From: Leucoraja ocellata
Taxonomy: Eukaryota
NCBI GenBank assembly: GCA_036785375.1
Contig: JAWMAR010000053.1
Location: 4,340,001 to 4,404,000, forward strand
Length of the DNA: 64,000 bases
Direction of reading: 5' to 3'
Each line of letters begins with the position of its first letter. Positions within the stretch are counted from its first letter, which is position 1. A program made the position numbers and the translations under genes. This document shows positions 29,030 to 52,647 of the stretch, piece by piece. The notes beneath the pieces were generated by a model. The model did no database searches and was not told where the DNA came from. It worked only from the letters and a program-made list of their open reading frames with translations.

Positions 29030-29690
29030 CGGCGATGTCCTCATTCTTTAGAAAAAGGGGGCTTCCCTTTTCCATTGTAGATGAGGCTCTCACTAGGGTC
29101 TCCTTGATATCCCACAGCTCCGCTCTTGCTCCCCCTCCCGCCATTCGCAACAAGGACAGTCCCCCTTGTCCTCACCTTCCACCCCATCAGCCGTTGCATA
29201 CAGCATATAATCCTCCAACACTTTCGCCACCTCCAACGGGATCCCACTACTGGCCATATCTTCCCATCTCCTCCCCTTTCTGGTTTCCGCAGAGACCATT
29301 CCCTCCACAACTCCCTGGTCAACTTGTCTCTTCCCACCCAAACCACCCCCTCCCCAGGTACATTCCCCTACAACCGAAGGAGATGCAACACCTCTCCCTT
29401 TACCTCCCCCCTCGACTCCATCCAAGGACCCCAACAGTCTTTTCAGATAAGGCAGAGGTTCATTTGCACCTCCTCCACCTCATCTACTGTATCCGCTGTT
29501 CCATGTGTCAACTTCTGTACATCGGCGAGACCAAGCGCAGGCTCGGCAATCGTTTCGTCGAGCACCTCCGTTCAGTCCGCCTTAACCTACCTGATCTCCC
29601 ATTTGCTCAGCACTTTAACTCCCCCTCCTATTCCCAATCTGACTTTTCTGTCCTGGTCCTCCTTCATTGCCAGAGTGAGGCCTAGCGCAA
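29030..29690 (+). mobile_element. Penelope-like element fragment (linker and GIY-YIG endonuclease), frameshifted
   Basis: PLVLTFHP...HFRHLQRDPTT...; LIYCIRCSMCQLLYIGETKRRLGNRFVEH is a GIY-YIG motif. Confidence 0.9.
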
Positions 29691-29775
29691 ATCTGTTTGT
29701 GTACAATTAGCATGTGGCCTAAGTAGTAACAGAACAATTACCGCCTATTGAGGTACTACATTTTAATTTCATGGA

Positions 29776-30332
29776 GACACAAGAGATTACTGATGCTGGA
29801 ATCTTGAACAAAAAATCAAACTGCTCAAGGAACTCAGTGGGTCAAGCAGCATCTATGAAGGGAAAAGGATCGACAACATTTTGGGTCATGCCCCTTCTTC
29901 AAACTGATGGAACTGATGGGAGATAGCTGGTGGAAAGAGGTGAGGGGAAGGGGGTGAGGCCAGAGCCGACAAGTGACAGGTGGATCTAACTGAGAAGAGT
30001 TTGATTGGCAGATGAGTCAGGTGGAGATAAAAAGTGTAGAGATAGTAACCAAACCGAGAGAGTGCAAATTGTGCAATCTGAACAGAAAGGAAAATGAGGA
30101 GTGCAAGTAAAACGGAGGAATGGATAGTAGGTATAAGGGAATGGGAGGTGGGGGGAAAATGTGGGAGGCCCAGTGTACAGAGGGATGGCAGATGAGTGGA
30201 TGATGGAGGAGAAAGGAACTGGGTGATGAAAGAGGGGCGGTGGGGGTGTTTGAATGGGGGTGGAGGTGGAGAGAAACTGGGTCAGTGAGATGGGACAGAG
30301 GTTACCCAAAATTGGAGAATTTGGTGTTCATG
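29776..30332 (-). mobile_element. degraded Penelope 3' end / pseudo-LTR, reverse orientation
   Basis: Reverse complement resembles 40260-40500: catgaac...ttctccaatttt, a pyrimidine-rich tail, and a decayed hammerhead arm. Confidence 0.65.
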
Positions 30333-30334
30333 AA

Positions 30335-31096
30335 AAAGTGGTTTAGTTTGTAGTTGTAGATGCAGCATTACCATGTCTCCTCCATCTCCCACAGTTCTGC
30401 TCTAGCAACACTTCCTTGGACAGAACAGATATAGAGTTTCTTTAACTTTGAACCCCACCAGAATCCAATACAGCATTAACTGACATTTCTGCCAGTTTCA
30501 GCGGCAAATGCCATAACCAGCCACATCTTCCTGTTTACACCTCTTTCTGCTTTCCATCAAGAACACTTTCTTCATGACTCTATTGCTCACTCATCCTTCC
30601 CCCAACCATCCTGCTCCCCTAGCAACTTACCCCAGTAACTGCAGGTGGTGCAGCACCTGTCCCTACACCTCCTCCCTCAATTCCCATTCCAAGATTTCAA
30701 CTGACCTTCCAGGTGAGACTGAAGTTTATATGCATCCTCCTCCAACTTCATTTTTGCATTTGCTGCTCTCGATTGTGACTTCCTCGGCATCAGTGAGGCT
30801 AAGTGTAAATTAGTTGACTGCTTTGCGCAATGTTTGCGCTCTGTCTACAAGGGCCTGCTGGATTTCCTTGATGTTAGCCATTTTAATTCTCCTTCTCATT
30901 CCCATATCGACCTGTCTTTCCTTGGCCTCCTCCACTGCCTACGTGCAAACTGGAAGAAGAGCCCCTCACATTTCCACTTGGGAGAACATAGATCTCAGTC
31001 TGAAGAAGGTTAACGACCCGAAACAACACCTATCTATGTTCATCTACAAAGGTGCTGCCTGACCCACTGAGTAAATCCAGCACTTTGTGTCTTTTC
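30335..31096 (+). mobile_element. degraded Penelope fragment ending in a hammerhead-type pseudo-LTR arm
   Basis: Decayed copy of the C..C/GIY-YIG region; ctgaaga-aggttaacgaccc-gaaac at 31000-31024 with the cleavage triplet mutated to AAC. Confidence 0.7.
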
Positions 31097-31319
31097 TCTA
31101 GTTCAGATGGAGCCTAAATCCTTAACCTATCGAAGTATCACAAAGCAATGCAACTTAAAACTCTTGGTAAAAGTTTATTGAAACCAAGTAACGCTACTGT
31201 TAAGTAGGCATAAGATAAGATATTAGAAGGAAAAATAAATGACGTTGGATTCTAATAAATGTAATAAAATGACTTTAATTGCTGCAGCATTTCTATGCTA
31301 ATGCTCTAACACAGGAAAT

Positions 31320-31412
31320 AGACACAAAATTCTGGAGTAACTTAGGAGGACAGGCAGCATCTGCGGGGAGAAGGTATAGGTGATGTTTTGCGTTAGGACC
31401 ATTCTTCAGACT
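31320..31412 (-). mobile_element. Penelope pseudo-LTR-derived short repeat, degenerate hammerhead
   Basis: agacacaaaattctggagtaac...ttcttcagact; the reverse complement starts agtctgaagaa. Confidence 0.65.
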
Positions 31413-32314
31413 AACATAGGAACATGACTCTTAAATTTAACTCTTGACTCCTTTCAATTTATTCAGGTTTGCCTCAAACCATCTCCCTGCCCTCAACCTT
31501 TTATAATACAAAATAAATTTGCCCCTGACTACTATTGACAAAAGCCTGTCTCTTCAAAGCCCAATCTATTCTTTATATCCTTGCACCTTAATCCAATTAA
31601 TTGTGTTAGTTCTGTGTTGTTAATTTCAATAACAAGGTTACTTTGATGTGAAATAACTTTAAGTTTACCAACACTTCAAGAATTACTTTTTTACTCCATG
31701 GAAGTTCCACATTTGATCAGACAGTAGAGTTTTTGTAGAGAAAAGAGGATAATGTTAATGGTATCCTTAAGTTGATCTTGAAAATGACGTCTGGTAGTTA
31801 CCTTAGCATACAGCTTTCTTTTTAAATCTGCCTTAAATATAATTGTTAGTCAATGTTTGGTTCATTAGGAGTTAATGCATTATTACTGAAGGCATCTGCC
31901 TAAGAAATCAACCTCGAGGTAACTGTTTAGACTTTTTATGGCATTAGCCACTTCTAACCATCTTCTCACAATCTTGCCTAGAAGAATCTTTTCATTAGGT
32001 GTTGTCACTTATTTTTCCATTGTTGTTTCATAATCATTGCTGCATATTGCAAACAAGGGTCATTTGGACAATGACAAGTGAAGTAAATCTAATCTACAGA
32101 TTTGGAGCATAGAACATTGAAAAGCACAGTACAGGAGCAGGCTCACAATGTTTGTGCTGAACATGATGCCAAGATAAGCTAATCCCATCTAGCAGCCCAT
32201 GATCATATCTCTCCCTTCAGTGCTCTTCAAGAGCACTGACAGCATCTACTTCTTGATCTCAAACTGCTCTTGCATATTAGTACTCTTCACACTAATATCA
32301 ATTAACTCCATGTC

Positions 32315-32556
32315 ATAGAAACATAGAAACATAGAAATTAGGTGCAGGAGTAGGCCATTCGGCCCTTCGAGCCTGCACCGCCATTCAATATGATCATGGC
32401 TGATCATCCAACTCAGTATCCCGTACCTGCCTTCTCTCCATACCCCCTGATCCCCTTAGCCACAAGGGCCACATCTAACTCCCTCTTAAATATAGCCAAT
32501 GAACTGGCCTCAACTACCCTCTGTGGCAGAGAGTTCCAGAGATTCACCACTCTCAC
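32315..32556 (-). mobile_element. young CR1 3' end
   Basis: (catagaaa)n tail and near-identity to the reverse complement of 23770-24013. Confidence 0.92.
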
Positions 32557-34150
32557 TCATGTCCTTCGCCTTGGCGCATACAGATGCAGAGTACTTAGTA
32601 CCTTGCCTAGATCCTCTGACACCAAGCATAAATTTCCTCCTTTATCCTTGAGTGGTCCCATTTTCTTCCTGGTTACCCACATGTTTTTAATGTACATATA
32701 AAAACCTGGGGACATTTGGCTCTTCTAATTGCCCATTTAAATTCTTTCCTGCTTACTTTATATTCAACAAGCTTAATTTCACCTTTCTAAATCATACACA
32801 TGTTCCTTTTTCTAATTGATCAATTTTGGTAGGTTTGGTTATCCAAGGGTCCCCTACATTGCATCTTATCCTTGTTCCTTATCCTTCTTCCTTACTCGAT
32901 CATGCTGTCCTGAAGTTGGCCTTTAAACTGCTCCCACATGTCAGAAGTGGACTTGCCCAATAACAACTGCTCCCAATTTACTCACTCCAACTACTGCCTA
33001 ATTATGCTGTAATTCCCTAATTTTGTATCCTCCTAAAAGATTCAGACTCATCCTTATTTATAACTATCTTAAAACTTATGGAGTTATGATCTCCGTTTCC
33101 AGAATACTCCTCCACAGAAACATCAGTAACCTGGGTCTTTCCCCAGTACAAGGTCCAGTAGGGTCTCTTCTTGAATTGGACTTTCCACATCCTGTTTCAT
33201 GAACCCATCTTCTGCAAATTCTGCCACTTCTAAGCCTTTCGATCAAGTGAGACCCAGTTAACATTGGAGAAGTTAAAGTCTCCTTCCGGGACAATCCTGT
33301 TGCTTTTGCATTTTTCTATAATCTATCTACATATATTTGTTCCTCTATCTCCTGTTGGCTATATGGAGGTCTATAGTACAGAGTGACTGCACCTTCCTTA
33401 TTTTTGAACTCTACCCATATTGCCTTAGTGGACAAAGCCTCCAGCATGTCCCCTCTAAGTGCCAGCGTGACTTCGCCCTGATTAACAGAGCAACTCCTCC
33501 ACCTCTTTTACCTCCCTATCACATTGGAACATCGATATCTGGAAATGTGGAGCTGCCTGTCCTATCCCTCTTGCAACCATGTCTCCATAAAGGCCAAAAT
33601 ATCATAGTTCCAAGCACTGATCCAGGGTCTAAATTCATCTGCTTTACTCACAATACTCCTCGCGTTGAAATAAGCACATCAGTCCATCAGTTTTACCATA
33701 TTCCTTAACCTCTCTATGCCTGTCCTTCCTTTAGTCTAACTTCTCAAACCTCTATCTTCCCACCAGTCCTTTCATTTGCTTACTCGTTCCCACACCTCTA
33801 CACTTTAGTTTAACCCCCCCCCAAAAAAAAAAAATTGGACCCCACCAGTTCAGGTGGAACTCGTCCCTCTTGCACAGGTCATCTGTGTCCCAATATCCAA
33901 AAACCTGAATCCCTGCCCTCAGCATCAACTGAACCACGCATTGATCTGTTCTGTCCCCCTATTTCTGCCATCACTAGCACATGGCAGTACTACCCTTGAG
34001 GTCCTACTTGTTAACCTTTTGCCTATCTCCCTATATTCACTCTGCAGGAACTTATCCTTTTCCTCCCAATGTCATTTGTGCCAATGTGCACAACATCTGG
34101 TTGCTCACCTTTCCCCTTGAGAATGTCCTGCAGCCACTCCAAGACATCCA
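32557..34150 (-). mobile_element. old CR1 5' region (ORF1 esterase and APE endonuclease relics)
   Basis: Minus-strand DLCKRDEFHLNW resembles the DGLHL motif of the CR1 ORF1 SGNH esterase; adjacent decayed endonuclease-like sequence. Confidence 0.6.
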
Positions 34151-34518
34151 GCAACCTTAATGTTACCTCTTGTTGTGTATTATTACTAGCATCGTCACAT
34201 CTATGATATACCCTGTGAGATCTATTTAATCATCTAAATTTAAACCTCCCCTCTGGTGAGATTTTGGTTGTATTATATTGTCAATTTTATTAAAGTTCAC
34301 TGCAGGCAGAAATGTATTCCTCCTCTGACGACTTTATGATGGCTTTGTTTTATTAACCAATTATCATTTATCATGCATGCAATATACTGAAATGCATCAG
34401 AATTAGCTTTTTGATTCTCCTTTCCAAATTGTTCTATCATACTTGCTATATCTAAAACCAAATGAATAAACCTTTTGCGAAATAGAGAGTTATTATAAGA
34501 TCTCCATGTAACTATTAA

Positions 34519-34736
34519 AGGGCCTGTCCCACTTGGCGTTTTTTTTCGGTGACATATCAGTGTCGCCAAAAGATTTCGAACATTTAAATCCAGCGGCGAC
34601 AAAAAAAATGTTGTGACACTTGAAAAAACACCGCGCCTCATACGTCATCACGCCGCATCACGCCGCAAATTTTTGGGTGACCTGATACGTCAGTCAATGA
34701 TGCCGGCAGTCGCCGAAAAAATCACCAAGTGGGACA
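34519..34736. mobile_element. MITE with terminal inverted repeats (PIF/Harbinger-like)
   Basis: agggcctgtcccacttggcgttttttttcggtgac ... gtcgccgaaaaaatcaccaagtgggaca; preceded by ttaa; right end clipped. Confidence 0.7.
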
Positions 34737-34951
34737 ATGCTACGATAAACTATTGCTTTGAATTCCACATATTTCCTGACAATTATTTGGTCACTTCTGT
34801 TGCAATTATCTATAAGACTTGTGTATCTCTTTTATATAATCCTAGTCGTTTTATTTTGCTAACCTTTAAAATAACTGAAATTGTCTGATAAAGTGCATCC
34901 TGATGTAGCATTTGATTATTAGGGTCAAATCCGAGCCATTTCTGGGTCTTA

Positions 34952-35880
34952 TATCTCCAAGTTTGCGGATGACACTAAGCTGGGGGGCAGTGTTAGCTGT
35001 GAGGATGATGCTAGGAGACTGCAAGGTGACTTGGATAGGCTGGGTGAGTGGGCAAATGCATGGCAGATGCAGTATAATGTGGATAAATGTGAGGTTATCC
35101 AATTTGGTGGCAAAAACAGGAAAGTAGACTATTATCTAAATGGTGGCCGATTAGGAAAAGGGGAGATGCAACGAGACCTGGGTGTCATGGTACACCAGTC
35201 ATTGAAAGTAGACATGCAGGTGCAGCAGTGAAGAAAGCAAATGGTATGTTAGCATTCAGAGCAAAAGGTTTTGAGTATAGAAGCAGGGAGGTTCTACTGC
35301 AGTTGTACAGGGTCTTGGTGAGACCAAACCTGGAGTACTGCGTACAGTTTTGGTCTCCAAATCTGAGGAAGGACATTCTTGCCATAGAGGGAGTACAGAG
35401 AAGGTTCACCAGACTGATTCCTGGGATGTCAGGACTTTCATATGAAGAAAGACTGGAAAGACTCGGCTTGTACTAGAATTTAGAAGATTGAGGGGGGATC
35501 TTATAGAAACTTACAAAATTCTTAAGGGGTTGGACAGGCTAGATGCAGGGAGATTGTTCCCGATGTTGGATAAGTCCAGGACAAGGGGGTCACAGTTTAA
35601 GGATAAAGGGGAAATCCTTTAGGACCGAGATGAGAAAATCTTTTTTCACACAGAGAGTGGTGGATCTCTGGAACTCACTGCCACAGAAGGTAGTTGAGGC
35701 CAGTTCATTGGCTATATTTAAGAGGGAGTTAGATGTGGCCCTTGTGGCTAAAGGGATCAGGGGGTATGGAGAGAAGGCAGGTACAGGATACTGAGTTGGA
35801 TGATCAGCCATGATCATATTGAATGGCGGTGCAGGCTCGAAGGGCCGAATGGCCTACTCCTGCACCTATTTTCTATGTTT
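34952..35880 (+). mobile_element. young CR1 3' portion (from the FADD motif to the tail)
   Basis: aagtttgcggatgacac (KFADD) through YCVQFWSP and FFTQRVV to the tttctatg tail. Confidence 0.94.
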
Positions 35881-37897
35881 GCTACTGGAATAAGAAAATA
35901 TTACTTGTGTTTGAAACATTTTCTTATCTTTATTCACAATTTATGTGTAAAAATATATTTAATCTGAGGCAGGCAGCGACTGTATCAGTGTGATGTAGGC
36001 TGATGCTTTACCTACAGGCGGTGTGAATGTACCGTTCAGGCAAAGATTATTCTTAGAGGAAAACTAAGTACAGGGTTGGCCCTGTGACAGAGCCGCCAAT
36101 CCTATATAAGACATTTAACTGCAAAATGCCTGCCCTTTAGCATTGGATAGATTGAGTGGAGGGTCTGTGCTGTTCCAAGTTTGCGGTGGTTGCGGTGCGT
36201 TTCCCCCAGCCATCTCGCCCGGTGCACGTTGACCAGCACAGTTCGCCAGCTCTTGTTAGCAGAGGCTCTTTGTGCAGGTGTTACCCAAAGAGATGTTCTG
36301 TGTTAGGTTCTGCACTCAGCGATCTCACGAGAGGGCTGTCAGATCAGATCAGCCCAGGTTGCAGGTGGCCGAAGGGTGGATTTTAATGTGCCGTTATTAA
36401 ACTGTTCCGTCTGTGTGGCATCGCCAGCTCTCCCTCTCCCAGGTCCCCCATCCCAACTGACGACAAAGTCTGACTGAGAAAATGCACACACTCTTATTAC
36501 GGGTTGGCTCTGTGTTTTCCCACTCGCTGGGGCGGGTGGCGCCTACTTCAAAGAGAGCGAGAACAGGGGAGCTGCGACCCACTCCTGAGTGAAGCCTCTA
36601 GTTTGGCTGCGGTTCAAATGGCTGCAAATTCTCATATTTATCACCGCCCGCTCACCCGGACCCAGCTCCCAACTGTGTGCCCTAATAGACTGGAACCAAC
36701 CCCAGAGGTTAAAGCGACAGCATCTCTATTTAAGACAACCTACCTTGAAACTTTAACCAGCCTGTTCGAATCCAATCTGAACTTTCCAACCTACCCCCAC
36801 ACAGCATATTCTCCTTGTTTCCTTCAATCCGGGAAAGTTGTTTAGATAGGAATGTAATGACTGTCTCAAATTGGTTGACCGCACAACTTCTAATTCATGT
36901 AAATCAATATCGAATTTGAATGGGTGTGACAGGTTAATACCAGGGATTTGATAATTGACAGGTTCGTTCCAGGCATTCGTGCGTTTTCAAGGCTGGTGCT
37001 CTCTTGAGTCAATAATTTAAATAGATACAATTGTGGATTTGTGTAACCTGCAGTACGCTGTGGCCTACTGCTGACATATTTGATGGATATATTTATTTAT
37101 AGATCTCATTGAAATGAATACGCAGGTCCGTACACACACGGTAGCTCAGCTGCTGAGAATGTTTATCCCGAATAACCCTTGACCTGGGAATGCGCAGTTG
37201 TAATACCAAACTCGCTTATTGATGGCATTTCAATTTCATAGTTCATAACACTAGTTAAATTAAAACAGGTTTTTAAAACTAAATTTGTTTTTAGAATGGT
37301 CACTAGCCCACAGCTAATTTTGTTTCTTTCGTGTTGATTCAAAATAAAAATGCCAATATCTTTCCATTTTTTTACAAGCATACAGTGTACGTAAAGTTTT
37401 GTCAGAGACGTGCAGCGTGAGAATGTTTTGTCTTCAATTTTTGATTTATTTTCACTTTTTTTGGGCTAACATTATGAAAGTTGTACATATATTATACTAA
37501 AGGTCCAAAAAAATATGTTATTCATGAGGCTTGGAAGTCCAGACTATATTTTCAGTGGGATACATTCACATTAAGCTAAACAATGTTTGGGATCACTTCA
37601 AATTGTTCCTGTTCTGGATCGCAAACTGACAATACAGAAATTATCGTTTTTAATATATTGGAATCTTTCATCAAGAATCTTATATCACGATTTTAACATA
37701 ATTTGCAGCAGTAACTAGAGTTGCTCATGATCCTCATGGAATTTGTGTCAATCTTTCCAGTATCCATTTAGATCAAAACAAGAAGTTAAACAAAAGGAAA
37801 CAAAGTAGCAATTAAAAAAACAGAAGCGCTTTTACTGAAACAGAAAAATCAAAACGTAATCCAGGCTGTTTTCTGTAGGAAACAAAATAACTGAAGA

Positions 37898-38558
37898 ATA
37901 GACAATAGACAATAAACAATAGGTGCAGGAGTAGGCCATTCGAGCCAGCACCACCATTCAATGTGATCATGGCTGATCATCCCCAATTAGTACCCCGATC
38001 TTGCCTTCTCCCCATATCTCCCGACTCCGCTATCTTTAAGAGCCTTATCTAGCTGTCTCTTGAAAGTATCCAGAGAACCGGCCTCCCACCGCCCTCTGAG
38101 GCAGAGAATTCCACAGACCCACATCTCTCTGTGAGGAAAAAGTGTTTCCTTGTCTCCGTTCTAAATGGCTTACCCCTTATTCTTAAACTGTGGCCCCTGG
38201 TTCTGGCTCCCCCAACATTGGGAACATGCTTCCTGCCTCTAGCGTTTCCAAACCTTAATAATCTTATATGTTTCAGTAAGATATCCTCTCATCCTTCTAA
38301 ACTCCAGAGTATACAAGCCCAGCTACTCCATTCTCTCAACATATGACATATCACGCCATCCCGGGAATTAACCTTATAAACCTACGATGCACTCCCTCAA
38401 TGGCAAGAATGTCCTTCCTCAAATTAGGGGACCAAAACTGTACACAATACTCCAGGTGTGGTCTGACTAGAGCCCTATACAACTGCAGAAGGACCTCTTT
38501 GCTCCTATACTCAACTCCTCTTGTTATAAAGGCCAACATGCCATTAGCTTTCTTCACT
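37898..38558 (-). mobile_element. CR1 3' end, subfamily with (ATTGTCT)n tail
   Basis: Minus-strand VKKANGMLAFITRGVEYRSKEVLLQLYRALVRPHLEYCVQFWSP; tail aatagacaatagacaata on the plus strand. Confidence 0.92.
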
Positions 38559-38774
38559 ATAAACTTAATCTCCACAATGAAATAATACTTTAATGCTCGT
38601 AGTAAAGCGTAAAGAAAAATAATAAAAGTAGTAAGAGCCTCAATCGACTTATATTCTCAATTCCACAGCAATCCAATGAAAGTCACCTCGTCTACACTTC
38701 TTTCAGCCTGTCTCTTGCAAGGACACCAATCCTTATTCCTAATATCTGTCCAAGTTGCATTCTAGAAAATCCAA

Positions 38775-39480
38775 GAAGTCCTCCTTCTTCAGTGAATGTG
38801 GTTTCCTCTTTGCTGCTGTGGATGGAGCCCTCAGCCATGTCTATCTGTGTCTTGCAGTTCTGCTATTGTTCCCCCTTCCCCATGTTGGAACAAGGATAAA
38901 GTTCCCCTTGTCCGCACCTTTCACACTACAGACTCTGCATCCAATACATAATTCTCTGAAGTTTTTGCCACCTTCATAGTGATCCCACTACCGTTCACAT
39001 CTTTCCATCCCCAACCATTTTTGCTTTCCCAACAGAACATTCCCTCTGCAACTCCTCGGTTCACTCATCCCTCCCCACCTAACCTGCTCCTTTCCCAGGT
39101 ACTTTCCTCTGCAACTGCCGGCGATGTAACACCTGTCCCTACACCTCTCTCACATCCTTCCAGGGTGCCCAGCAGCCCTTTCAGGTGACACAGAGGTTCA
39201 CGCGCACCTTTTCAAACTTTGTCTACTTCACTCTGTGCTCCCAACGTGGCCTATTCATTGGCGAGACCAATCAAATACTAGGCGACCGTTTCGCTGAATG
39301 CTTGCACTCTGTCCACCAAGGCTTGCTGGATCACCCAGTTGCTAACCATTTTAACTTCCCATTCCCATACTGAACTTTCTGTCGTTAGCATTAGGCCACT
39401 TGAGGAACAGCTCCTCGTGTTCTGTTTCGGTAGCTTACAACCCAACAGTATGAGCATTGAATCCTTCAATTTCAAGTAAT
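38775..39480 (+). mobile_element. degraded Penelope-like fragment
   Basis: QRFTRTFSNFVYFTLCSQRGLFIGETNQILGDRFAE is a decayed GIY-YIG motif. Confidence 0.75.
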
Positions 39481-39672
39481 ATCCCCTCTCTTTTCCTTGT
39501 GCGCACTTTGTAGTGCACATATTTCTCCCTCCTCATCACAAACCACCCTGCCACCTATGCTCCTTTCTCCTCCAAACGCTCATCTCTCGCCCCTGAGGTG
39601 CCCCTTTTATGTCTCTTATCAGGAAGACCTCAGCTCCCCTGTGAAACCCATCTGCCAATCAAACTCCCCTCA

Positions 39673-40498
39673 CCTAGTCCCCCTAATCCTCACCTTTCAC
39701 CCCACCAGGCGTCACATACAACAAGTAATCCTCCGTCAGTTTTGCCACCTCCAACGTGACCCCACCACTCGCCACATCTTCCCATCTCCCCCCATGTCTG
39801 CCTTCCACAAAGACCGCTCCCTCCGCAACTCCCTTGTCAATTCTTCCCTTCCCTCCCGTACCACCCCTTCCCCGGGCACTTTCCGTTGCAACCGCAAGAA
39901 ATGCAACACCTGTCCCTTTACCTCCCCCCTCGACTCCATTCAAGGACCCAAGCAGTCGTTCCAGGTACGACAGAGGTTCACCTGTATCTCCTCCAACCTC
40001 ATCTACTGCATCCGCTGCTCTAGATGTCAGCTGATCTACATCGGTGAGACTAAGCGGAGGTTGGGCGATTGTTTCGCCGAACACCTCCGCTCGGTCCGCA
40101 AGAACCTACCTGACCTCCTGGTGGCTCAGGACCTCAGCTCCCCTTCCCATTCCCCGTCCAACCTCTCTGCCCTGGGTCTCCTCCATGGCCAGAATGAGCA
40201 ACACTGGAAATTGGAGGAACAGCACCTCATATTCCGCTTGGGGAGTCTGCATCCTGCGGGCATGAACATTGAATTCTCCCAATTTTGTTAGCCTTTGCTG
40301 TCTCCTCCCCTTCCTCAGCCCTCGGGCTGTCTCCTCTCATCCCTCAGCCATCGGGCTCCTCCTCCTCCATTTTCCTTCCTTCTCCCCGCCACCCCCTATC
40401 AGTCTGAAGAAGGGTTTTGGCCTGAAACGTTGCCTATTTCCTTTGCTCCATAGATGCTGCTGCACCCGCTGAGTTTCTCCAGCATTTTTGTGTACCCT
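39673..40498 (+). mobile_element. Penelope-like element 3' part: open GIY-YIG ORF, stop at 40291, pseudo-LTR with hammerhead
   Basis: PLILTFHP...CNRKKCNTC...NLIYCIRCSRCQLIYIGETKRRLGDCFAEH...PAGMNIEF, then ctgaaga...gaaacgtt. Confidence 0.92.
40401..40435 (+). ncRNA. minimal type-I hammerhead ribozyme motif (Penelope-associated)
   Basis: CUGAAGA (40404-40410), imperfect stem II gggttttggcct, GAAAC, GUU; stem I is weak. Confidence 0.6.
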
Positions 40499-40772
40499 CA
40501 CCTATATCCACTTACCACATGCAAGACTTTGCCCCACCTTTCACCTCTCTTTTCCAATTTTCCCTCTAATCCGTCAGTCTGAGAAATAAAGTCATTATTG
40601 CTTAAGAAAATACTACCAATTCACCAAACAAGATAAAGTAAAAAGACAAATAACAGGCAAGGAGATTAGAGAACCAACAAAGAACTGAAGATAGACACAA
40701 AAAGCTGGAGTAACTCAGCGGGACAACAAAATGAGAGATGACACAAAAAGCTGGAGTAACTAAGCAGAGAGA

Positions 40773-40806
40773 GGTCTGAAGAAGGGTCTCGACCTGAAAC
40801 GTCACC
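40773..40806 (+). ncRNA. minimal type-I hammerhead ribozyme motif, core intact
   Basis: GGU-CUGAAGA-A-GGGUC-UC-GACCU-GAAAC-GUC^ACC: all core nucleotides present, stem II, 3-bp stem I (GGU/ACC), loopless ACGU stem III. Confidence 0.75.
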
Positions 40807-42605
40807 CATTCCTTCTCTCCAGAGGCTGCTTGTCCCGCTGAGTTACTCCAGCATTTTGTGTCTACCTTCGAGTAACTCAGCAAACAAACTACTCGGAGAA
40901 CAATTTTTGGAAAGCAATTGAATACATATTATATTTACCAATGGCGATTTAGTCAATTAAGGATGTTGTATTGTTAATTAAGTGTGATATATTGATGTGA
41001 TATATTGATTCAGTAATTTGGCTGAATTATACGAGGATCAAAATGTTTTTAGTTTTGATTGAATCTTCCAAAATATATTTATTTTATGCATTTCTTTTAC
41101 AATAGTAATATCATGTGCTTTCCAAAATTTAAATAGACAAATGACGTGTTTGAGTTGTGCATGACTAAGTGAAACAAACAGTGATACAATAGCCAATTAT
41201 TATTTTTCTGTGGAAGGGACATGGGCCTTTAGATATACTTGTCTTTCTGTCGGTCTTGTGGAATAGTCCTTTTCTTCAAATTGTGCTTTTATACCCAGGT
41301 CAAGTATTAAGATTTTATTAATTGGAATGGATTTTGGAGACTGCACATGTATATTTAAATGTGGAAATGCAGAATTTGCTGAGAATTATTCCTTGTCAAA
41401 TATTTCTAGCATTTTCTGCTAATCCCCTACATTCCCAGCTGATTATGGTGCAGGTTGAACATCGATTTACTGGCTGTCCCCTATAATCCAGACAAAATTA
41501 CGAGAGCTCAATTGAAATTCCCTGAGTGGCCGCAGATGGCATTGCGAGTAGAGAGTGCTTTTTCTGATTGTGTCCCTCCGTAGTGAAAGAATCAACTATG
41601 CCATCAATCTTCTCTCCTAACTGTTTCACAAAGACAATACTGTAAACCCTATTTTGAACGACTCCCTTATAACAGATGTCGTTTATAGAGGACGGACCTA
41701 CCGACCCATCTCCGCCTCGCACCATCTCCCCAGCTGTTTAGAGTCCCGGCTTCCGACCTACTCGCGACTCACAAAGTGCATCAGCAAGCCCTTCTTCACC
41801 CACCGAAGAACACAAAGTGCTAGAGTAACTGAGCGGGTCAGGATCTCAGGAGAACATGGATAAGTAACATTCCTCAGACTGATTCAGTCAGCAGTGTTAG
41901 TCCAGCCCTTCTTGCCATTTCACTTTAAAACTAGGCAACAATGCCGTTGGTATGCAACAAACAGTGAGCCCTTCTTCACCGGCTCACAGCTATTGTTGCG
42001 GCTCACATTGTGGCTCCTGGGGACAACTTTGTTCAGTGTGCCCCTACTGACAGAACTTGGTCATCGTGGGATGCCCTTCCCTCTCACCTGCTGTCCCAGG
42101 GCTCTAAACGCCCGGGGAGTTGGTGGGAGCCAGGGATGCAGGTCATCTCTTTCACAAACATTTTATATTTGTTCTATTTAAGTTTCTGGCACTTGATGGT
42201 GCTTGGGAAACACGGGAGTGGTGTCATTAGTGGGCCAGGGGTATATTGTCATTTCATTATCACGTGACCTCTGCTGGTCCAGAGAAACAGATAACCAAGG
42301 CTGCCGGAAAATAAGTGTTCAACCTGTATAACTTTTTTGAGTTCCTTCTGCTCTTAGTTTAGTACTTAACTCATGGATTCCTGTTGCCTTCTGCCCTCAC
42401 TTCTTTTATATATACAATTCCACTGCCTAACTGGTTTTTGGAATATTCAGTACTTTATTTCAATTTCAACATCATTACATCAAATACTAAGTATTTTACA
42501 GTTGTATTATTTGATGTAATTGTATCACTTCTGTTAGTAAGTTTTGGATCTATAGTCAGTTTGTGATAATGTTTCTGATTAAAATACATTTTATTCTAAA
42601 CATAG

Positions 42606-42794
42606 ATCTAAAGATCACCTGGTACAATAAACACAAGGAGATCAAGCAATCAAGATTCTTCAAGATGGTTCAGTTTGAAGACACTTACCAATTGGAAATT
42701 GCTGAAGCCTACCCGGAGGATGAAGGAACATATACATGTATCGCAACCAACTCTGCTGGAGAGGTGTCGTGCACTGCTGAATTAAAACTGGAAG
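42606..42794 (+). CDS. ttn: titin exon 44 equivalent (end of Ig I15)
   Basis: acatag|AT CTA AAG...GAA G|gtaatt; LKITWY...SRFFKMVQFEDTYQLEIAEAYPEDEGTY; 189 nt. Confidence 0.95.
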
Positions 42795-43068
42795 GTAATT
42801 AAAAATTTTGCTTATATTTGCTACTTCTTTTGTTATATTTACATTTCTGTTTTGCTGATGTGAAATTTGAAGCACTTTCCTGCTTGCAGTTGTTTTCTTA
42901 ATTTAATAATGTTTTTTATCATTGCCTGCGGCATTCATTTCTACATCAGCACAATTGGCCAGCAACAGTGTTCATTTGTGAAAGCATGTGTATTTTGTGC
43001 TTGGTTTGCTGAACACCATTCTACCTTATTTTAGTACCTACCATTTCCTGAAGCTTTTTCATCAGTTA

Positions 43069-44265
43069 CAGCGCCCTCCATAATGTTTGGGACAAAGTGC
43101 CATAATTTATATATACGCCTCTGTACACAATTTGAGATTTGTAATAGAAAGAATCACACGTGGTTAAAGTGCACATTGTCAGATGTTAATAAAGGCCATT
43201 TTTATACATTTTGGTTTCACCATGTAGAAATTACAGCAGGATTTAGTCCCCCCATTTTAGGGCACCATAATGTTTAGGATACAACAATGTTATGTAAATG
43301 AAAGTAGTCATGTTTAGTATTTTGTTGCATATCCTTTGCATGCAATAACTGCTTGAAGTCTACGATTCATGGGCATCACCAGTTGCTGGGTGTCTTCTCT
43401 GGTGAAGCTGTGCCAGGCCTGTATTGCAGCCATCTTTAGCTTATGCTTGTTTTGGGGGCTAGTCCCCTTCAGTTTTCTCCAGCATATAAAAGGCATGCTT
43501 AATTGGGTTCAGATCGGGTGATTGACTTGGCCACTCAAGAATTGACAATTTTTTAACTTTGAAAAACACCTTTGTTGCTTTAGCCGTATGTATGGGATCA
43601 TTGTCTTGACAATGGTCATTGGCAAATCCACACCTGACTGCTGAAGAGTGTTTCTGATCTGTCGGACAGGTGTTTGGGGGTTTATTTATTATAGAGAGAA
43701 TTCTTCTGTCATCAGCTGTGGAGGTCTTCCTTGGCCTGCCAGTCCCTTTGCGATTAGTAAGCTCACCAGTGCTCTCTTTCTTCATAATTATGTTCCAAAC
43801 AGTTGATTTTGGTAAGCCTAATGTTTGGCTGTTGTCTCTATAACAGTTTTATTCTTGTTTCTCAGTCTCATAATGGCTTCTTTGACTTTCATTGGCACAA
43901 CTTTGTTCCTCATGTTGATAAACAGCAATAAAAGTTTCCAAAGGTGATGGAAAGACTGGAGGAAAGACTAGGTGCTGAGAACGGTCTTACACCTGCATTA
44001 AGGAGGCAATTAAACACACCTAAGCAATTACAAACGCCTGTGAAGCCATGTGTCCCAAACATTATGGTGCCCTGAAATTGGGGGACTATGTATTGTAAGC
44101 TGTAATTTCTACATGGTGAAACCAAAAAGTATAAAAATGGCCTTTAATAAAATCTGACAATGTGCACTTTAACCACATGTGATGTTTTTCCTTTACAAAT
44201 CTCAAATTGTGGAGTACAGATAAATAAATGATGGGTCTTTGTCCCAAACATTATGGAGGGCGCTG
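43069..44265 (-). mobile_element. Tc1-family DNA transposon, IR/DR type, internally deleted transposase (ATG 43913 to stop 43314)
   Basis: Inverted repeats of about 210 nt starting cagcgccctccataatgtttgggacaaag, each containing two ccataatgttt.gga direct repeats; TA on the left, CA on the right; motifs [22 protein letters not shown] and final TKY. Confidence 0.95.
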
Positions 44266-45443
44266 CATAGACTTCATCAAGCAACTCACCCAGCCACATT
44301 GCTTCCATTTCTGTAGTACATCTCATGGCCAGTTCTTCCATCCACCTCTACGGCAAACAGAGACCAGCTGCTGTACACACTGGAATTCCACTATAACACG
44401 ACTATACCGTTTTCAAATGCAGATTTTTTTTTTTGTTAAAACAACTTAATATGTTATAACTGTAAATATATACAGCAATAAAACATTTTAAAATCATTTT
44501 GTTTGAATTTTCTTGAGTTAAAGCTAGGTCACCTCTTGCACTAGTTTAAGTTTTAAGATTATTAAAGACTGAAATATCAAAGACTGAAATTTTCATAGTC
44601 CATTTCAAATGCAGCTAAAATAACTTGAGCGTACATTTTTTCAAGTTGGTATTTTGGTTCTATCATTAACACCTGTCAAACAAGTTAAGGTAGATTTCCT
44701 CTGCAAGGTATAAAAAGGTTGAAGAAATTAGAACAAAGACTTAGTGACATATGTCCTATTTTGGTTCCCTTAAGATGCATCCTCTGCCCAGAGGTCTATC
44801 TTTACGGAGTTTATTTTGAGTAGGCAAATGCAGTATGGGGCAGCGGCAAAAGTTACTTTACTTCCCAAATCAAAGCGTAATGACATCATGATGGACATAT
44901 GATAGAGCCAAGAGAAGACCTAGTACTTTATTTTGATAATTCTCAGACCAATGTTTACATTATAATTCTTGGCTTAGCAATTTCTGTAAAGTATAGAACA
45001 TGCTGGACAATATACATACATAGTATATGAGGTCAATATTTATTCTGAAAAGATAGTATCTTCAAGAGTACATTTGATTATTTCCTTTAGCTTTCAATTT
45101 CATACCATGTCACCTCATTATTCAAAAACCTGACGACTTTAATGCACCAGTATGAAAGCCTTTCATCTTGATACATTGACGCATTAATTCATCTGCATCT
45201 TGGATATTTGCAAGAGAAGAACTAAATCATCATTTTGTTCAAATGAATGCCATTTTCTTCCAAAGAATTTGCAGATGTTTTTGAGGAAGAGAACATGGGT
45301 ATATTCCTCATCAAGTGAATTGCACTCCTTAAGCATGTGTCCAGCATGCTGGGTTGCCCGTTGGACAACATAAACTATTGCTTTCTTTAATTTGTCAGTC
45401 ATGATTTAATATCATGATTAATATTTTGTCTTTTGTTACTCAG

Positions 45444-46325
45444 ATTACAAAGTGCAAAGCATAGATAGTCAGAGCATAACTTCTGGAAAAGCTGTAGCGG
45501 AATCCATCTCTTCAAAGACTTTTGAAGTATCAGAAATGCATATGGAGTGTCCTATGACCTTAAAGCATACAAAGAACTATACAGAGGGAATCAGTTTACA
45601 ACAACAACATTCGTACAATGTTCAGATGTTTGAAAGTATCTCTATGACTTCATCCACCAAGACAGTTTCTTCTGAAAGCTGGGGAGAATCTCAAAAAGTT
45701 AGCAAGGCTGAAGCAATCAGAAGTGGCTCTCAAGTTGCACCAAAGTTCCTACAAGATATGGAAAATATCACAGTTATGTTAGGTGAAACAACATCTCTAA
45801 AATGTCAAATTCTAGCAATCCCAAAACCTGAAATAACATGGTACAAAGAAGACCAAGAAGTTGTGGAAGCTAAAAGAATAAAAATTGTAACTATAACAGA
45901 AGCTGAAGCTTTAACTTTGTCTGAGATAATTATACAAAACACGAATGAAGAGGATACAGGAGTTTATAACTGCAAAGCTGTGAATCCTCATGGTGAGGCG
46001 AAATGTAAAGCAAAAGTAACTATTGCTGCAGCCAAACCAGGTCTTGAAGTCCCTGCAATTCTACTTGAACTTAGTGATCTCAGAGTCAAAGCTGGTCAGA
46101 TGGCACAGTTCATCTGTTCTTTTAATGAAGAAACATTCTCAGAGATTATATGGAGTCACAGAAACAGAAGATTGGAAGAATCAGGAAGACTGAAGATATC
46201 TCGGAATGGAAATGTTATGTCTCTCACCATCCTCAATGTGCACATAGAAGATCAGGGACAGTATAGCTGTACTGCAAGAAATCAAGGTGGTGAAATGAAG
46301 ACTACTGCCGTACTTACAGTCGAAG
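45444..46325 (+). CDS. ttn: titin Novex-2-like alternative exon with two Ig domains (882 nt)
   Basis: actcag|AT TAC AAA GTG CAA...GAA G|gtggtt; symmetric phase 1. The N-terminus (VQSIDSQS...VQMFESIS) and last Ig (RLKISRNGN...DQGQYSC...TTAVLTVE) resemble human Novex-2 as recalled. The donor is weak. Confidence 0.82.
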
Positions 46326-46623
46326 GTGGTTGTTTATAATTTTATTTAAAGACAGCATCCTGATTCATCCACTTCATTGTTTCTTACCCAAAATTAATTT
46401 AGTATCTATTTAAGAAGATCCTGAATTTACATATTAACAGTAATATATTTTGTTTAAGATGTTAGCTAGTGATTTATACAAAATTTAACACTAGACATTT
46501 CATCACACTAGTCTGCATGAATTATTGAACACATTATTTTGGGCTGTTTTATATTTTTCAAGTATTTACTTTGCTGAAATTGCTAAATCACTTAACATTT
46601 ATCCTAATTTTATTCTTGCATAG

Positions 46624-47139
46624 CTGAAGAAACAAAACCCCAAACAGGTGCTAAAATTCCCACTGATAGCAGTTCAGATATCTCTAAAATTGAACAAAGG
46701 CCTCATATCACATCTAATAGCAAATCAGAAGTTCTAAAGAAACCATCAAGCTCACCACCTACTTCAACCAAACGACCAACTAGAACAGCAAAGCAAAGAA
46801 GCCGAGACTACTATCCTGACGTGGTGCCCAGTGATGAATTAATAGACATTGGAGCAATTGTACCAGCATTCTTAGAAAAGTTGCCACCAGAAATCATTGC
46901 AGAAGATGGAGAAGATGTTTTGCTGTTTTGCATTGTAAAGGGTCTACCATCGCCTTGTGTACTTTGGCTGTGCAACCAACGCATGGTTGAAGAATCTTCA
47001 ATGTGCTCCATAAAACATGATGGGTTGCTATGCAGTTTAAAGTTACTGAAAGTCAGCCAGAGTCACAGTGGTGCTTATACATGCAAAGCGGTTAATTCAG
47101 CAGGAGAAACAGCGTGCAACACTCTACTTAGTGTGACAG
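46624..47139 (+). CDS. ttn: additional titin alternative exon (S/K/P-rich linker and one Ig), 516 nt
   Basis: gcatag|CT GAA GAA...ACA G|gttggc; open, symmetric phase 1; PAFLEKL...C..KGLPSP.V.W...HSGAYTCKAVNSAGE. Confidence 0.8.
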
Positions 47140-47558
47140 GTTGGCAATTGCATGCTTTGATCCTTCCCCATGTGATCATGCATCTCAGCACAGTCATGGA
47201 AAGAATCTTTGCGAAGTCATCTTGTTTCGCTGTGGATTATTGCACTCCTTTTTACATTAAAATGGATTAGGCATGTGAGGCATGTTTAATGTTTTGTTAC
47301 AGAGCAAAACAGATTTTTGTTTACAAAATCCTGGGTTGTATGAATTAGCTTTGTGATTCAATCAACCAGTTGTTTGGTGATACATTTTGAAAGCTGCAAT
47401 CAACGGATATACCTCTGCTATTTTGCATGTATGATTGTATGGTTTTGCATATTTCATAGTTCATTTTTATTTTTTGCACTTTAATTACAAATTGTAAAAC
47501 CAATGTTGGTTGCACTTCTGAAATTATACTCAATTTTATTTGTTTTAATTTACTGCAG

Positions 47559-48655: not shown

Positions 48656-48798
48656 TGAGTGAATTTTTTATAGTAATTGTAAAAAATGCTAATGCATAAA
48701 GTTTGTAATTTCATGTTTCAGATTTGTATTACATTTAATTCTTAATATTTTAACTGATTTCTGAGAAACCATTCAATTGATTCTTCTTTTTTCTACAG

Positions 48799-51700
48799 AG
48801 TTATTTTTTGATGATGGGAGAGAACGTTTGGAAAACAGAGAAAACATGCGGGATGCATTTTCTGATGCTGAAGATTATTTAGATCAAGGTCTAGTTTCTG
48901 CTAAACGTTGTGCAAGTAGAACATCTTCTGTAGGTTCTTGGCCTGAGCATTTCAGGCCATCTTTTACAGAAAAGCTGAAATTCAAATCTGTAATGGAAGG
49001 AGAGCAAACTGCTTTTAAATGCAAAATGGTTGCCAGCCCAGCACCAAACGTTGCATGGTTTCATAACAACAGACCTATTCGTAAAGATTCAAGAAAGGTT
49101 ATTAAAACAGAAAGCACAATGCACATTCATAGCTCCAGTTTGGAAATCAATAATGTAGAAGAGAAGGATTCCGGGAGCTACAAGATATTTGCAATAAACT
49201 CCGAAGGATCAGCAGAATCAACTGCATCTTTACTTGTTGCACTTAAAGAGGAGCAAAATGAAAACTATCTAAATTTTGTGAAAAGGTCAGTGATGGCTCA
49301 CCAAAGCATTGACACTTTGGTTAAAAATCGGAACGCAAGACTTAAAGTTGATCTTAGGCATGTTGGGTCTCCTTTTGAGAAGAAATTTGAGTTTCAAGGA
49401 GATTTGCAAAATAAGTCAAATTCTAGAAGTAGACTGATGCGTACAATGTATATTGAAAGTACATTCACAGCAACTAAATATGATGATCCTGCTATTAATA
49501 GGTCTGCAGTTATATATTCACCTAGATTATGTGGGACAATTCTCAACAAAGATAGCTTGATCGATGAAGATATTAAGATTAAACTGCATCTTTTACGTGA
49601 AGCTAAAAGAAAAAAGAGATTTTCTCTTGCACTCTCTGAAGCTTCATTTGACCTAGATACATCAACTGAAAACAATCAAAAATACAGTCATGTTTATTTA
49701 GACAGAGAACGCAGCAGAAGTATGGGAGATCTTAACTGCATGAACCATGCAGATAGTAAATGTCGTTTTGTGTACGAGCAGACAGAGTCTCCAGGTGATT
49801 ACTTTCGGAAACGACCTCTTGAACGACAACAAGAGACGGAACAGATATTAGGGCTTCCTTCACTGGAAACCGAATTTAAAAATGTCCTTGAAGAAAATAT
49901 AATTGAAGAATCTTCTAGAACAGAAATCATAAAGCCATTAAATGAGCAAATATTGAAAGGTGATTCATCCCAAGAGACGGAAGAGTCGCATGAGGATCAA
50001 TATTGTTTGGAACCACAGGAATCTGGTAAACGTAGTTTTCAGAAAGAATTTTCAGACCAACTATTTGGAAAAATTATTAGTGTGCAGAGAGATTTCCAAT
50101 CAGATGTTTCTGGGGAGACGTTGGATTATTTCATACCTGGAACCAGAAAAACTAAAGCAGCCGGAGAAACTGAGGTAGTTAAACAGTTTGCAGATACAGT
50201 TGAGTGTACAGACATTTTATTGAAGGAAAAAGAGTTTCTAACACCAGTAAAGCAAACTCTGGTGGAGATAACAGAACCTCAAAATAAATACAAGTTCAAT
50301 AAAAATAATGCCATATTTTCTGATCAAAGTGTGCAAAACTCGCTTGCAAGGAAAACTAGAAGCAGTCATTCAATGTCTGACCACTTCAGAGCAACAGAAA
50401 AATATGAATCTAGTTTCACTGAAAAGGAAGACATAATGGGGGAGTGCGCACAAAAGTTGATCCCTTCTTTATTACCAGAAAAAAACATCTCAGTTCCTGC
50501 CAGCCCACCTTTGGATGCTAATGCAGTAGAAATAAACAAAACCTTGGGTAAATGTGAAGCAAAAAAAGACCGTGTTATTAGTTCTGACAATTTACCTAGA
50601 ATTATCTTTCAAAAACAGATGCCTGGATCTGATTGCAGAACTGTTTATCAAACCAAATTGGCATCCAAAGAAAATGAGGCGATAAGTGTAATTAACATAG
50701 ATGAAAAAGTGGTGCAATCTGAAGGCAAAATTAAAGATGATTCCCAAACAATATTACCCTCTACATTACCAGAGAAAAAAGAAATATCAAGTTTCACTAG
50801 TTCTTTAATTAAAAACACACAAGAAGATATAAAACATATTCCAAATAAAACTACAAAGGTAAGAAATGAAACATCTATAAGACACGCTGGCAAACAAAAT
50901 GATTTGCTAACCCAAAAAACAGAAGTTGTTCATGAAATACCTGATCATTCTTCATCAGAGATGATTGATGTGCTCAAAATCAATCAGAAAGAAAGGCAAT
51001 ATGAAAAAGAGATTATAGATTCTGTCCATGTCATGAGGCATTCACCTTTGAGTGCAAAGAAAAGAGAAGCATCAGCCTTTTTTAGCCCAGTGCTAAAACA
51101 ACTTCAAGTGGGAATAAAGAAACCTCTAAAGGAATCTGAGGTTCATGAAAAAGATGAACCAGCATCTGAAAGAAGCTATGGACATTTTATTTATGTGGAA
51201 TCGGACTATCCAGTAACAAAATCTGAAGATTGTCATGAAATCCAAATGGCTGTTCAATCCAAGTTAGCAGTAAAACAAATTCATGTGATTGGTGTTTCTG
51301 AAATCAGTCAACATGAACAGTGTGAAGGCAAGGTTAAAGATCCTATTTTAAGTTTGGCGCCTTCTGTATCAGAGAACAAAGATGCTTCCCCAACTGTCAG
51401 TTCATACCTAAAGGAAACTGTGGGTGAAATGAGAGAAACCCAACATATATCAGAGGTTAATGAAGGTACTAAGATACCTCCTGCCCAATTTGCTGGTGGT
51501 ATTGTTAGTACAATGAGGAACCTTGTTGCTGAAAAATCTGACAAGGTCCTTGAAGCATCTAATCTTTGCACATCTGTTGAGGTGATTAACATTTCTAATG
51601 TCAATCAGAACCAGAAAGAACCACAATATAAAAAACAGATTAATAGCACAATCCACCCATTTTCACCTGATAGAAATGACGCGCCAACCTCTTTAAGTAC

Positions 51701-52647
51701 ATCTGAACCTACGGAAGACCACAAGGCAGATTATATAGAACGATGTGGAATGTTGTTCCAAGCACAAAAGAAGGTTTTACCAGAGAAACCTGACAACAAT
51801 AACAACATGTACTTTCAGTCCTTAAAAACAGCAAAGGATGCTGAGGAGATTTATGAAGATGAAATCAGACAAAATGAATCACAATCTGAAGCAAAGGTTC
51901 CAAATTCCACATGGATGATGAAGGCTTCGCCTTTATCAGAGGAAAAAAAGACTTCAGTTTACAAAAAAGAGACTTCAGTTTCATCGGTGTTTAGAAGAGA
52001 TTCTCCTTGGAACCTTGAATTTAAGGAAGACCATATGAAAACTCTTGAAAGATTTGCCAGTACTCACAAAGAAGATTCAACAGAGAAACTAGAAAGTGAC
52101 CAAATAATATCCGATCAATCAGCATTCAGAGAGCCAACAGTGATTAATGCAACTAAAATTGATCAGAAACAACATGAAAGGGAAGTTGAATGCCTTTCTC
52201 CAACTATGACACATACCCAAACATCGCCCTTAAAAGAAAAAACACAGACTTTGGATTTATTCAGTTCATTAATAAAAGAGACTCCAGCAGAAGACCATCA
52301 TTATAAATATAAAGCTATGAACGAATCTTCAAAAGCTGGGACTCCTTCCATTAACCTAAACAAACATTGTCCTCCAGTATTTTTTCAGCATATTACGTCT
52401 CCTAAAATTAAACAAGGAGCTACCTGTGTCCTTGAATGTCAATTTCATGGACACCCACAACCTATGGTAACTTGGTACAAGGATGAACATCCAATTCCAC
52501 AGAACAGGGGTTATGATATTTACTCCACAGAAAATAAATCCTCATTGAGTATTAGCTGCATATGCCAAGAACATGGAGGAGTTTATGCATGTGTAATATT
52601 CAACCAACATGGTACTGCAGCAACATCCTGCGTCCTTACAGTACAAG
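48799..52647 (+). CDS. ttn: titin Novex-3 (exon 48 equivalent), part 1: Ig, long unique region, Ig
   Basis: ctacag|AG TTA TTT...CAA G|gtaaaa; RDAFSD...SWPEHFRPSFTEKL...AINSEGSAESTASLLV matches the Novex-3 start; 3849 nt open. Confidence 0.92.

Follow-up and report, generated by a model that had tools for sequence, protein, structure and literature searches.

Two hammerhead motifs in a titin intron of the skate Leucoraja ocellata as probable decayed ends of an abundant Penelope-like element family

The window analyzed here, a 64,000-nt stretch of contig JAWMAR010000053.1 of Leucoraja ocellata, lies within the titin gene. Ig-profile matches in 664 kb of the contig are located exclusively on the forward strand (197/197), extending in window coordinates from about -55 kb to about +318 kb. 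A GT..AG intron of 16,436 nt (26170-42605, forward strand) splits one Ig domain between exons 26044-26169 and 42606-42794, the latter matching Pfam I-set with an E value of 1e-17. If the large exon at 8.8-10.6 kb, which we take to be the homolog of human exon 28, is used as the starting point for a count of Ig exons, this is intron 43 and exon 44 follows it. Large ORFs after the intron fit exons 45, 46, and 48 as Novex 1-3, the identity given to these exons in PMC5852582.

Two minimal hammerhead cores of the form CUGAAGA…GAAACGU-H are found on the titin sense strand of the intron, at 40404-40431 and 40776-40803, hence 372 nt apart. In the window letters, CTGAAGA starts at 40404 and 40776, and GAAACGT is followed by T40431 and C40803, respectively. 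The positions, spacing, and predicted cut sites (GUU at 40431, GUC at 40803) are those given by an earlier sequence-only reading, and its placement of a cut about 1.8 kb before exon 44 likewise agrees with the 1,803 nt measured between 40803 and the start of the next titin exon, the number of that exon being tied to the human numbering assumed above. The upstream motif (40398-40437, forward strand, subfamily B) consists of a core at 40404-40410, an extra A at 40411, helix II at 40412-40423 with a G10.1-U11.1 pair and a UUUG loop, and GAAACGU at 40424-40430, with cleavage predicted after U40431. Its own helix I comprises 2 bp, in keeping with the weak stems ascribed to this copy before. The downstream motif is contained in a solo terminal repeat (40772-40871, forward strand, subfamily A), delimited by family profile and genome comparison; its core at 40776-40782, extra A at 40783, helix II at 40784-40795, and GAAACGU at 40796-40802 precede a predicted cut after C40803. 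Helix II again carries G10.1-U11.1, and a shifted A-U register could form at equal energy cost. The copies are 81% identical and belong to separate subfamilies.

Both copies possess the catalytic boxes CUGANGA and GAAA with a UH cleavage site, an extra A between A9 and 10.1 (as in 84/88 core-intact motifs sampled), and a palindromic 15.2-16.2 (ACGU) without loop 3, so that the loopless GAAACGU stem III had been described correctly. The account of Cervera and de la Pena (2014, PMC4209133) names an extra nucleotide after A9, the palindromic 15.2-16.2, and a G10.1-C11.1 pair as hallmarks of minimal hammerheads of Penelope-like elements (PLEs). The latter pair is absent in both window copies, which have G-U instead. 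The motifs are of the class of the known PLE minimal hammerheads, the two copies failing one defining feature through decay. A loose motif pattern yielded 5 matches in the window versus 1.16 expected, a number reached in 2/100 shuffles, and 400 kb of sampled genome contain the strict motif 29 times, versus 0-1 per Markov simulation (n=10). Given this excess, which itself stems from a repeat family, the motifs are not chance occurrences. Rfam hammerhead families gave no match at gathering threshold in the 64-kb window.

The upstream motif terminates a 5'-truncated PLE (39673-40497, forward strand) that includes the C-terminal end of a reverse transcriptase (RT), a CX2CxxC-type linker, a GIY-YIG endonuclease, a 3' UTR, and the terminal repeat. 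This copy starts at 39673 and is devoid of RT apart from that C-terminal end. The open frame extends from 39461 to 40291, its PLE-homologous part beginning at 39677, and stops ~110 nt before the upstream core; this ORF directly upstream of 40404 is absent from the sequence-only reading. A Pfam search with the endonuclease fragment itself (last 204 aa, E 0.01) produced no match, and its assignment to PLEs was therefore made through relatives. The same 204 residues led to 22 longer relatives among 455 candidates, the best of which derive from rays and sharks with 55-65% identity, several carrying both reverse transcriptase and GIY-YIG; the Pfam cut-off is passed by P0010 for GIY-YIG and by P0018 for RVT_1. 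Within the skate genome, a relative of the PLE protein returned 204,643 first-look candidates, 99 of which were scored, and 12 loci were examined, six of them chosen for long frames. All 12 match 39673-40497 with 86-90% DNA identity, and 13/13 endonuclease ORFs therein stop 118-145 nt before the same hammerhead. In this genome, the frames at loci L217 and L219 stay open for 1,264 and 1,202 aa and match RVT_1 at E 7e-6 and 1e-5 and GIY-YIG at E 0.025 and 0.0095, all below the Pfam cut-offs. These family members unite RT with C-terminal GIY-YIG in a single ORF, as expected for EN+ PLEs, and the characteristic layout is found as well, with 5' truncation, partial tandems such as L219, and an inverted 5' copy. 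At the protein level the window fragment is 86% identical to the L219 ORF, differing at a conserved Arg and a conserved His of the endonuclease. On the basis of the ORF upstream, the 12 matching loci, and the L219 identity, we assign the upstream motif as the terminal repeat of a 5'-truncated PLE.

By genome comparison, the downstream motif is identified as the solo end of a sister PLE subfamily; of 40 genome places scored, the 39 ranking next match its terminal repeat at 91-97% identity. An AGAGGT 5' flank was considered as subfamily boundary and rejected: it is common in the best genome matches and mostly missing from arbitrarily chosen stretches, its frequency thus reflecting selection by the query. 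On the reverse strand, two inverted truncated family tails precede the downstream repeat, arm 1 at 40685-40725 (family profile positions 68-108, E 1e-7) and arm 2 at 40739-40767 (positions 72-100, E 0.005), with a z of -9.25 for 40680-40875. The two inverted arms proposed earlier to enclose the downstream copy thus exist, but once the upstream copy is included in the fold, 40685-40727 has 27.5 expected pairs with the upstream tail versus 0.0 with the downstream tail, leaving 40739-40767 as the only partner of the latter. Inverted copies were found just 5' of 131/423 near-full copies sampled and just 3' of 19/423, and in PMC8557442 this layout, a truncated copy inverted at the 5' end, is given as a typical PLE trait. 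The arms are the usual by-product of PLE insertion, and folding predicts that they hinder the downstream core, holding it in an inactive hairpin, instead of assisting it.

The first half of the spacer between the motifs (40498-40590, forward strand) weakly resembles, and is likely a remnant of, an older PLE subfamily's 3' UTR; a broken core start closes it. It has 39 other genome matches of 74-86% among 40 scored, and at one sampled locus (L058, E 0.018) this sequence is flanked by an EN fragment on one side and a hammerhead-like end on the other. For the second half, the non-repeated stretch 40591-40684, neither the 40 genome places scored nor the 1.864 Mb of sampled genome gave another match. 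An older, more diverged PLE endonuclease fragment at 38898-39473 (forward strand, 69% identity to the younger one), together with the other PLE pieces, lets the region be read as a nest of PLE insertions. Eight further family copies, located with the family profile, cover all or part of the core region elsewhere in the window, at 18198, 23320, 27878, 29909, 31415, and, partially, 41874 on the reverse strand and at 17293 and 30994 on the forward strand. These copies and the change from C to U at 11.1 in both motifs had escaped the sequence-only reading.

The family is highly abundant. In 400 kb of genome, made up of forty 10-kb stretches taken from large contigs at round coordinates, two single queries detected 160 family matches (82 +, 78 -) and the profile 188, and the 29 strict motifs combine a complete core with GAAACGTH. 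The full 1.864 Mb sampled contain 738 family matches and 88 core-intact motifs, a family density of ~400 matches per Mb. Scaled to 3.44 Gb, this extrapolates to >1 million family fragments and 160,000-250,000 core-intact motifs, estimates that may be too high as the assembly seems to contain duplicated stretches. In two DNA-like sequencing runs, hammerhead bins reach depths of millions versus ~30-50 on unique bins, a contrast that is not a copy number. Apparently intact elements are still present in the genome. Same-strand pairs within 1 kb occur six times in 1.864 Mb, the window pair included, versus 2.05 expected at random, and two of the five others are sense in a CUB/Sushi (CSMD-like) gene; extrapolated from these five, ~9,000 such pairs are expected genome-wide. 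The view that the pair is special to titin is not supported, its motifs being abundant PLE ends and such same-strand pairs recurring.

Decay was assessed in 193 near-full copies, of which 128 are closer to the downstream and 62 to the upstream copy; the remaining three, namely both window copies and one without assignment by the score rule, were left out. Mismatches amount to 28-29% at CpG sites, 7.3% at other core sites, and ~13% at tail sites, with column medians of ~7.5% in the core versus 9.6% in the tail. Core, ACGU, and G10.1-C11.1 are all retained in 17/128 downstream-like and 13/62 upstream-like copies. Both window copies carry U at 11.1, a CpG-type change and the commonest decay change in the family, and the upstream copy has additionally lost the UUCG loop. 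By comparison, ends attached to an open endonuclease ORF have C11.1 and UUCG in 13/13 cases, and G10.1-C11.1 is found in 55/78 motifs with a 12-nt helix II. Differences between subfamilies are one-sided, with U-A or U-G at helix II pair 4 (50 and 24 of 78) and at helix I pair 1 (43 and 30 of 88), and compensatory double changes are almost absent (one A-U each at helix II pairs 1 and 2). Own helix I is restricted to 2 bp or fewer in 82/88 core-intact motifs. G10.1 is termed quasi-conserved in PMC1636495 and PMC544870, whose treatment of this position gives no rate for a G-U pair or a GUU triplet.

With family membership, abundance, inverted partners, and the C11.1 to U change observed, we consider it probable (roughly 87%) that both motifs are terminal repeats of one abundant PLE family, likely left by separate insertions into a nest of older copies and mutated since; they are predicted to cut titin pre-mRNA rarely or never and are likely neutral. 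In an active element, by analogy to other PLEs described in the literature, minimal hammerheads of tandem repeats would dimerize, probably assisted by protein, and would thereby process the element's own RNA. After insertion, copies would have decayed, chiefly at CpG sites. Once transcribed as part of titin, the upstream tail would be paired with arm 1, while the 3' flank of the downstream core and arm 2 would keep that core locked, so that the intron should be spliced out uncut. Contrary to this reading, core columns are somewhat better kept than the tail (7.3% versus ~13%), and the cross-copy helix I available to the 40431 site (4 + 4 pairs) is better than most.

Whether the pair could cut titin RNA was addressed by secondary-structure scoring, in which a cis dimer of the two copies is nested and topologically possible: helix III joins both ACGU stretches, and each core borrows the cleavage strand of the other copy. 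The earlier suggestion is supported in so far as minimal type I hammerheads with a loopless helix III can work only as dimers (PMC4209133) and neighbors may form one in cis. The complete cis dimer, however, lies 19.8-40.1 kcal/mol above the ensemble. For cutting at 40803, the junction relies on the weak upstream core, has a helix I of 2 bp, and lies 15.5-35.8 kcal/mol above the ensemble; together with the lost G10.1-C11.1 this speaks against the proposed release of a 372-nt RNA; double cutting and release of a 372-nt circle are disfavored by the modeled energies. The junction cutting at 40431 employs the downstream core with a helix I formed, by chance, from 4 pairs, a mismatch, and 4 pairs. 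Its penalty is 24.5-25.5 kcal/mol in the full transcript, 4.4-5.5 kcal/mol for 3' ends at 40803-40810, 7-9 by 40815-40845, and 20-32 by 40855-40870, the late rise being due to the tail then pairing with arm 2. This low-penalty state lasts ~10 nt of elongation. Of five other natural pairs, the necessary base pairing is impossible in three, and the two others lie at 5.7-20 kcal/mol; the transient 4.5 kcal/mol modeled for the window pair is good, not unique. Tertiary contacts in the core and kinetic traps do not enter the ViennaRNA energies, so trace cutting at 40431 may occur.

The best surviving alternative builds on this transient state. The downstream core would act on the upstream GUU site just after its own transcription, the duplex of 40455-40495 with arm 1 drawing the cores together, and such a chance-made cis dimer would cut a small fraction of nascent titin RNA at 40431 without any selected function. 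It gains from the 4 + 4 pairs of the cross-copy helix I and the low penalty at 40803-40810, but at usual Pol II speeds this interval passes in <1 second before the penalty climbs, and the acting core carries G10.1-U11.1. In the data of PMC7229834, dimerization greatly improves cleavage by axolotl hammerheads whose helix III is weak; the minimal PLE hammerheads of PMC4209133 are inactive as monomers and slow, with low activity, even as dimers. We regard this alternative as unlikely, at about the level of an outside chance. Its extension is more doubtful still: two independent ends forming by chance a working cis dimer could cut 40431 before the Novex/N2B cassette and shift isoforms, and thousands of chance pairs among the 160,000-250,000 core-intact motifs could constitute hidden co-transcriptional intron cutting in cartilaginous fish, a model-based proposition that we hold to be improbable.

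No RNA record is listed for 40500-46400. RNA runs X19 and X22, from other organisms and with 5-6% of each surveyed over 38600-43400, have zero depth on the titin exon and therefore carry no information about this gene; what they place on hammerhead bins derives from other copies of the family. Read ends show no listed accumulation at those bins in X19 and X22, which is a weak test for fragmented poly(A) libraries, and "goes back" joints also appear in DNA-like runs and hence do not indicate circles. Contigs of a related organism (run X16) overlap the junctions by 26-30 letters on one side and span neither core. Strand bias was examined in titin (373 kb) and 800 kb from three CUB/Sushi (CSMD-like) genes, oriented by domain matches (the C77 gene has no listed Sushi match on its contig, and the second C32 stretch is taken as one gene across a long intron). 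All family matches in these four genes divide into 216 sense and 222 antisense, intact cores with G10.1-C11.1 into 17 sense and 11 antisense (p 0.35), and broken copies into 118 and 135 (intact versus broken, Fisher p 0.17). Sense-strand depletion of intact copies was thus not seen in the four long genes, at low power given 28 intact copies and three genes that are not muscle genes. Titin has a family density of 134 per Mb versus ~400-600 in other samples and harbors 0 sense and 1 antisense copy with full core and C11.1; these features leave room for selection in titin, though the copies are too few to test.

Co-option of the pair by titin, with both sites being cut to regulate Novex/N2B exon use or to release a 372-nt circular RNA, appears highly improbable. 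Both cores are sense with complete catalytic boxes, a distance of 1.8 kb separates the site from the following exon, which precedes the Novex-like cassette, and intronic ribozymes with proposed mRNA-processing roles exist (PMC6765202; PMC10919898, Cpeb3). Yet the 40803 junction has a 2-bp helix I, a decayed helix II, and the high penalty given above, both copies bear the commonest decay change of their family instead of improvements, and such pairs are expected thousands of times genome-wide. The amniote intronic hammerheads and the CPEB3 ribozyme are conserved single loci with complete, monomer-active folds. The window motifs share with the ultraconserved intronic hammerheads of amniotes (PMC6765202) and with the CPEB3 ribozyme (PMC10919898) the sense-strand intronic setting of a self-cleaving motif, but they are repeat copies with decay changes.

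Least probable is a dimeric non-LTR retrozyme, in which the 372-nt unit would be a tandem repeat of the non-autonomous kind that is expressed as a circle. Pairs of type I hammerheads on one strand, separated by a few hundred bases, are also described for newt, axolotl, and coral retrozymes (PMC7229834; bioRxiv 10.64898/2026.07.22.740005), and the spacing fits their size range of 150-450 bp (PMC7229834) and the 363 bp average the preprint reports for one chondrichthyan, but no tandem repeat covers the unit, let alone at least two consecutive units each with a complete hammerhead, the copies come from different subfamilies, and the cores are minimal, not canonical. Dimer-type activation is common to non-LTR retrozymes, as portrayed in PMC7229834, and to motifs of the kind in the window. 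A retrozyme repeats one unit in tandem, and its hammerheads are canonical; the window holds two unrelated insertions and a non-repeated spacer, whose second half is without other match.

The reading as decayed PLE ends thus places the motifs among known systems. Like the metazoan PLE minimal type I hammerheads in PMC4209133, they have CUGANGA/GAAA boxes and the extra nucleotide between A9 and G10.1, lack loop 3, show the palindromic 15.2-16.2, and are seated in a terminal repeat; most copies are dispersed truncated solos, some near each other on opposite strands. Unlike those hammerheads, helices are shorter here (4 bp in helix II, in most cases 2 bp and an internal loop in own helix I), both window copies are without G10.1-C11.1, and copy number is far above the 4,000-9,000 given for coelacanth and Xenopus, where the descriptor was stricter. 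The element resembles the Neptune/Nematis-type EN+ PLEs of Craig et al. (2021, PMC8557442) in its RT, Cys-rich linker, and C-terminal GIY-YIG, in 5' truncation, in partial tandems (L219), and in inverted truncated 5' copies, although the window copy is without RT and has the changed Arg and His, and the Cys-rich linker motif is the single pointer to that putative clade. It is also akin to Poseidon of the green anole (Frangieh et al. 2024, PMC11167929), a vertebrate PLE with a hammerhead in its pseudo-LTR. The Poseidon ribozyme was assayed, unlike the motifs considered here from sequence: it cleaves only with its PLE protein, is dispensable for insertion in vitro, and has no RNA-seq ends reported at its site (PMC11167929). 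A literature search by title and abstract returned nothing on a skate or chondrichthyan PLE-hammerhead family or on a titin ribozyme; the family may be contained in bioRxiv 10.64898/2026.07.22.740005, as one chondrichthyan genome is included there.

The finding as such matters little, as the motifs are two of very many decayed PLE ends. Its useful by-product is the scale of the family, with >1 million fragments and 160,000-250,000 core-intact minimal hammerheads by extrapolation. This scale and the apparently intact elements make the skate a good system in which to ask if PLE hammerheads cut host transcripts in vivo. If the cut at 40431 were real, it would represent a ribozyme built from two separate insertions and acting on a major muscle gene.

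Besides the main hammerhead pair, eight additional copies of the terminal repeat of the same Penelope-like element (PLE) family lie within the window, and under the strict pattern their cores are broken or absent in all eight. These PLE ends occupy positions 17293-17391 and 30994-31096 on the plus strand, and 18198-18103, 23320-23220, 27878-27794, 29909-29811, 31415-31316 and 41874-41808 on the minus strand; one of these copies has its inverted partner at 27870-27922. Two additional PLE endonuclease fragments were located on the plus strand at 29157-29692 and 30445-30984, the latter followed by the family end at 30994.

Other transposable elements share the window. LINE-type reverse transcriptase fragments and near-identical 3' ends, CR1/L2-like by eye, were found at 4494-5357 (plus), 28248-28919 and 38351-38656 (both minus), 23629-24014 and 35473-35880. 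An element of ~1 kb at 43148-44188 carries inverted ends of 90 nt (93% complementary) and broken frames that, judged by eye, resemble a Tc1/mariner transposase. Downstream, the Novex/N2B region of titin contains five large Ig-bearing frames (45422-46339, 46608-47270, 48765-52676, 52694-56152 and 60338-64021), with just 18 nt separating two titin frames of >1,100 aa each. The skate Novex/N2B cassette may be unlike the mammalian one.

Across the titin span (contig C53, from -55 kb to +318 kb relative to the window), family density is 134 per Mb compared with about 400-600 in other samples, approximately one third, and this holds for both strands. Two poly(A) RNA runs from related organisms (X19 and X22), compared with window 40371-40853, contain family sequence in abundance, with the two read directions about equal; most likely, this sequence represents passenger copies inside host transcripts.

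Many domain matches on contigs C32, C127, C65/C82 and others of the L. ocellata assembly were found twice, with equal score at distant places, which suggests that the assembly contains duplicated haplotypes. At another genomic locus (L011:1817-2163), five head-to-tail units of ~66 bp, each comprising the hammerhead 3' half plus tail, form a small tandem array originating from the PLE end. Among the 13 hammerhead ends attached to open GIY-YIG endonuclease frames, the predicted cleavage site is GUU rather than GUC in 12. At three loci (L217, L218 and L219), PLE copies have frames that stay open for 1,202-1,264 aa, measured from stop to stop, and their hammerhead ends are nearly identical, which suggests a recently active PLE family.
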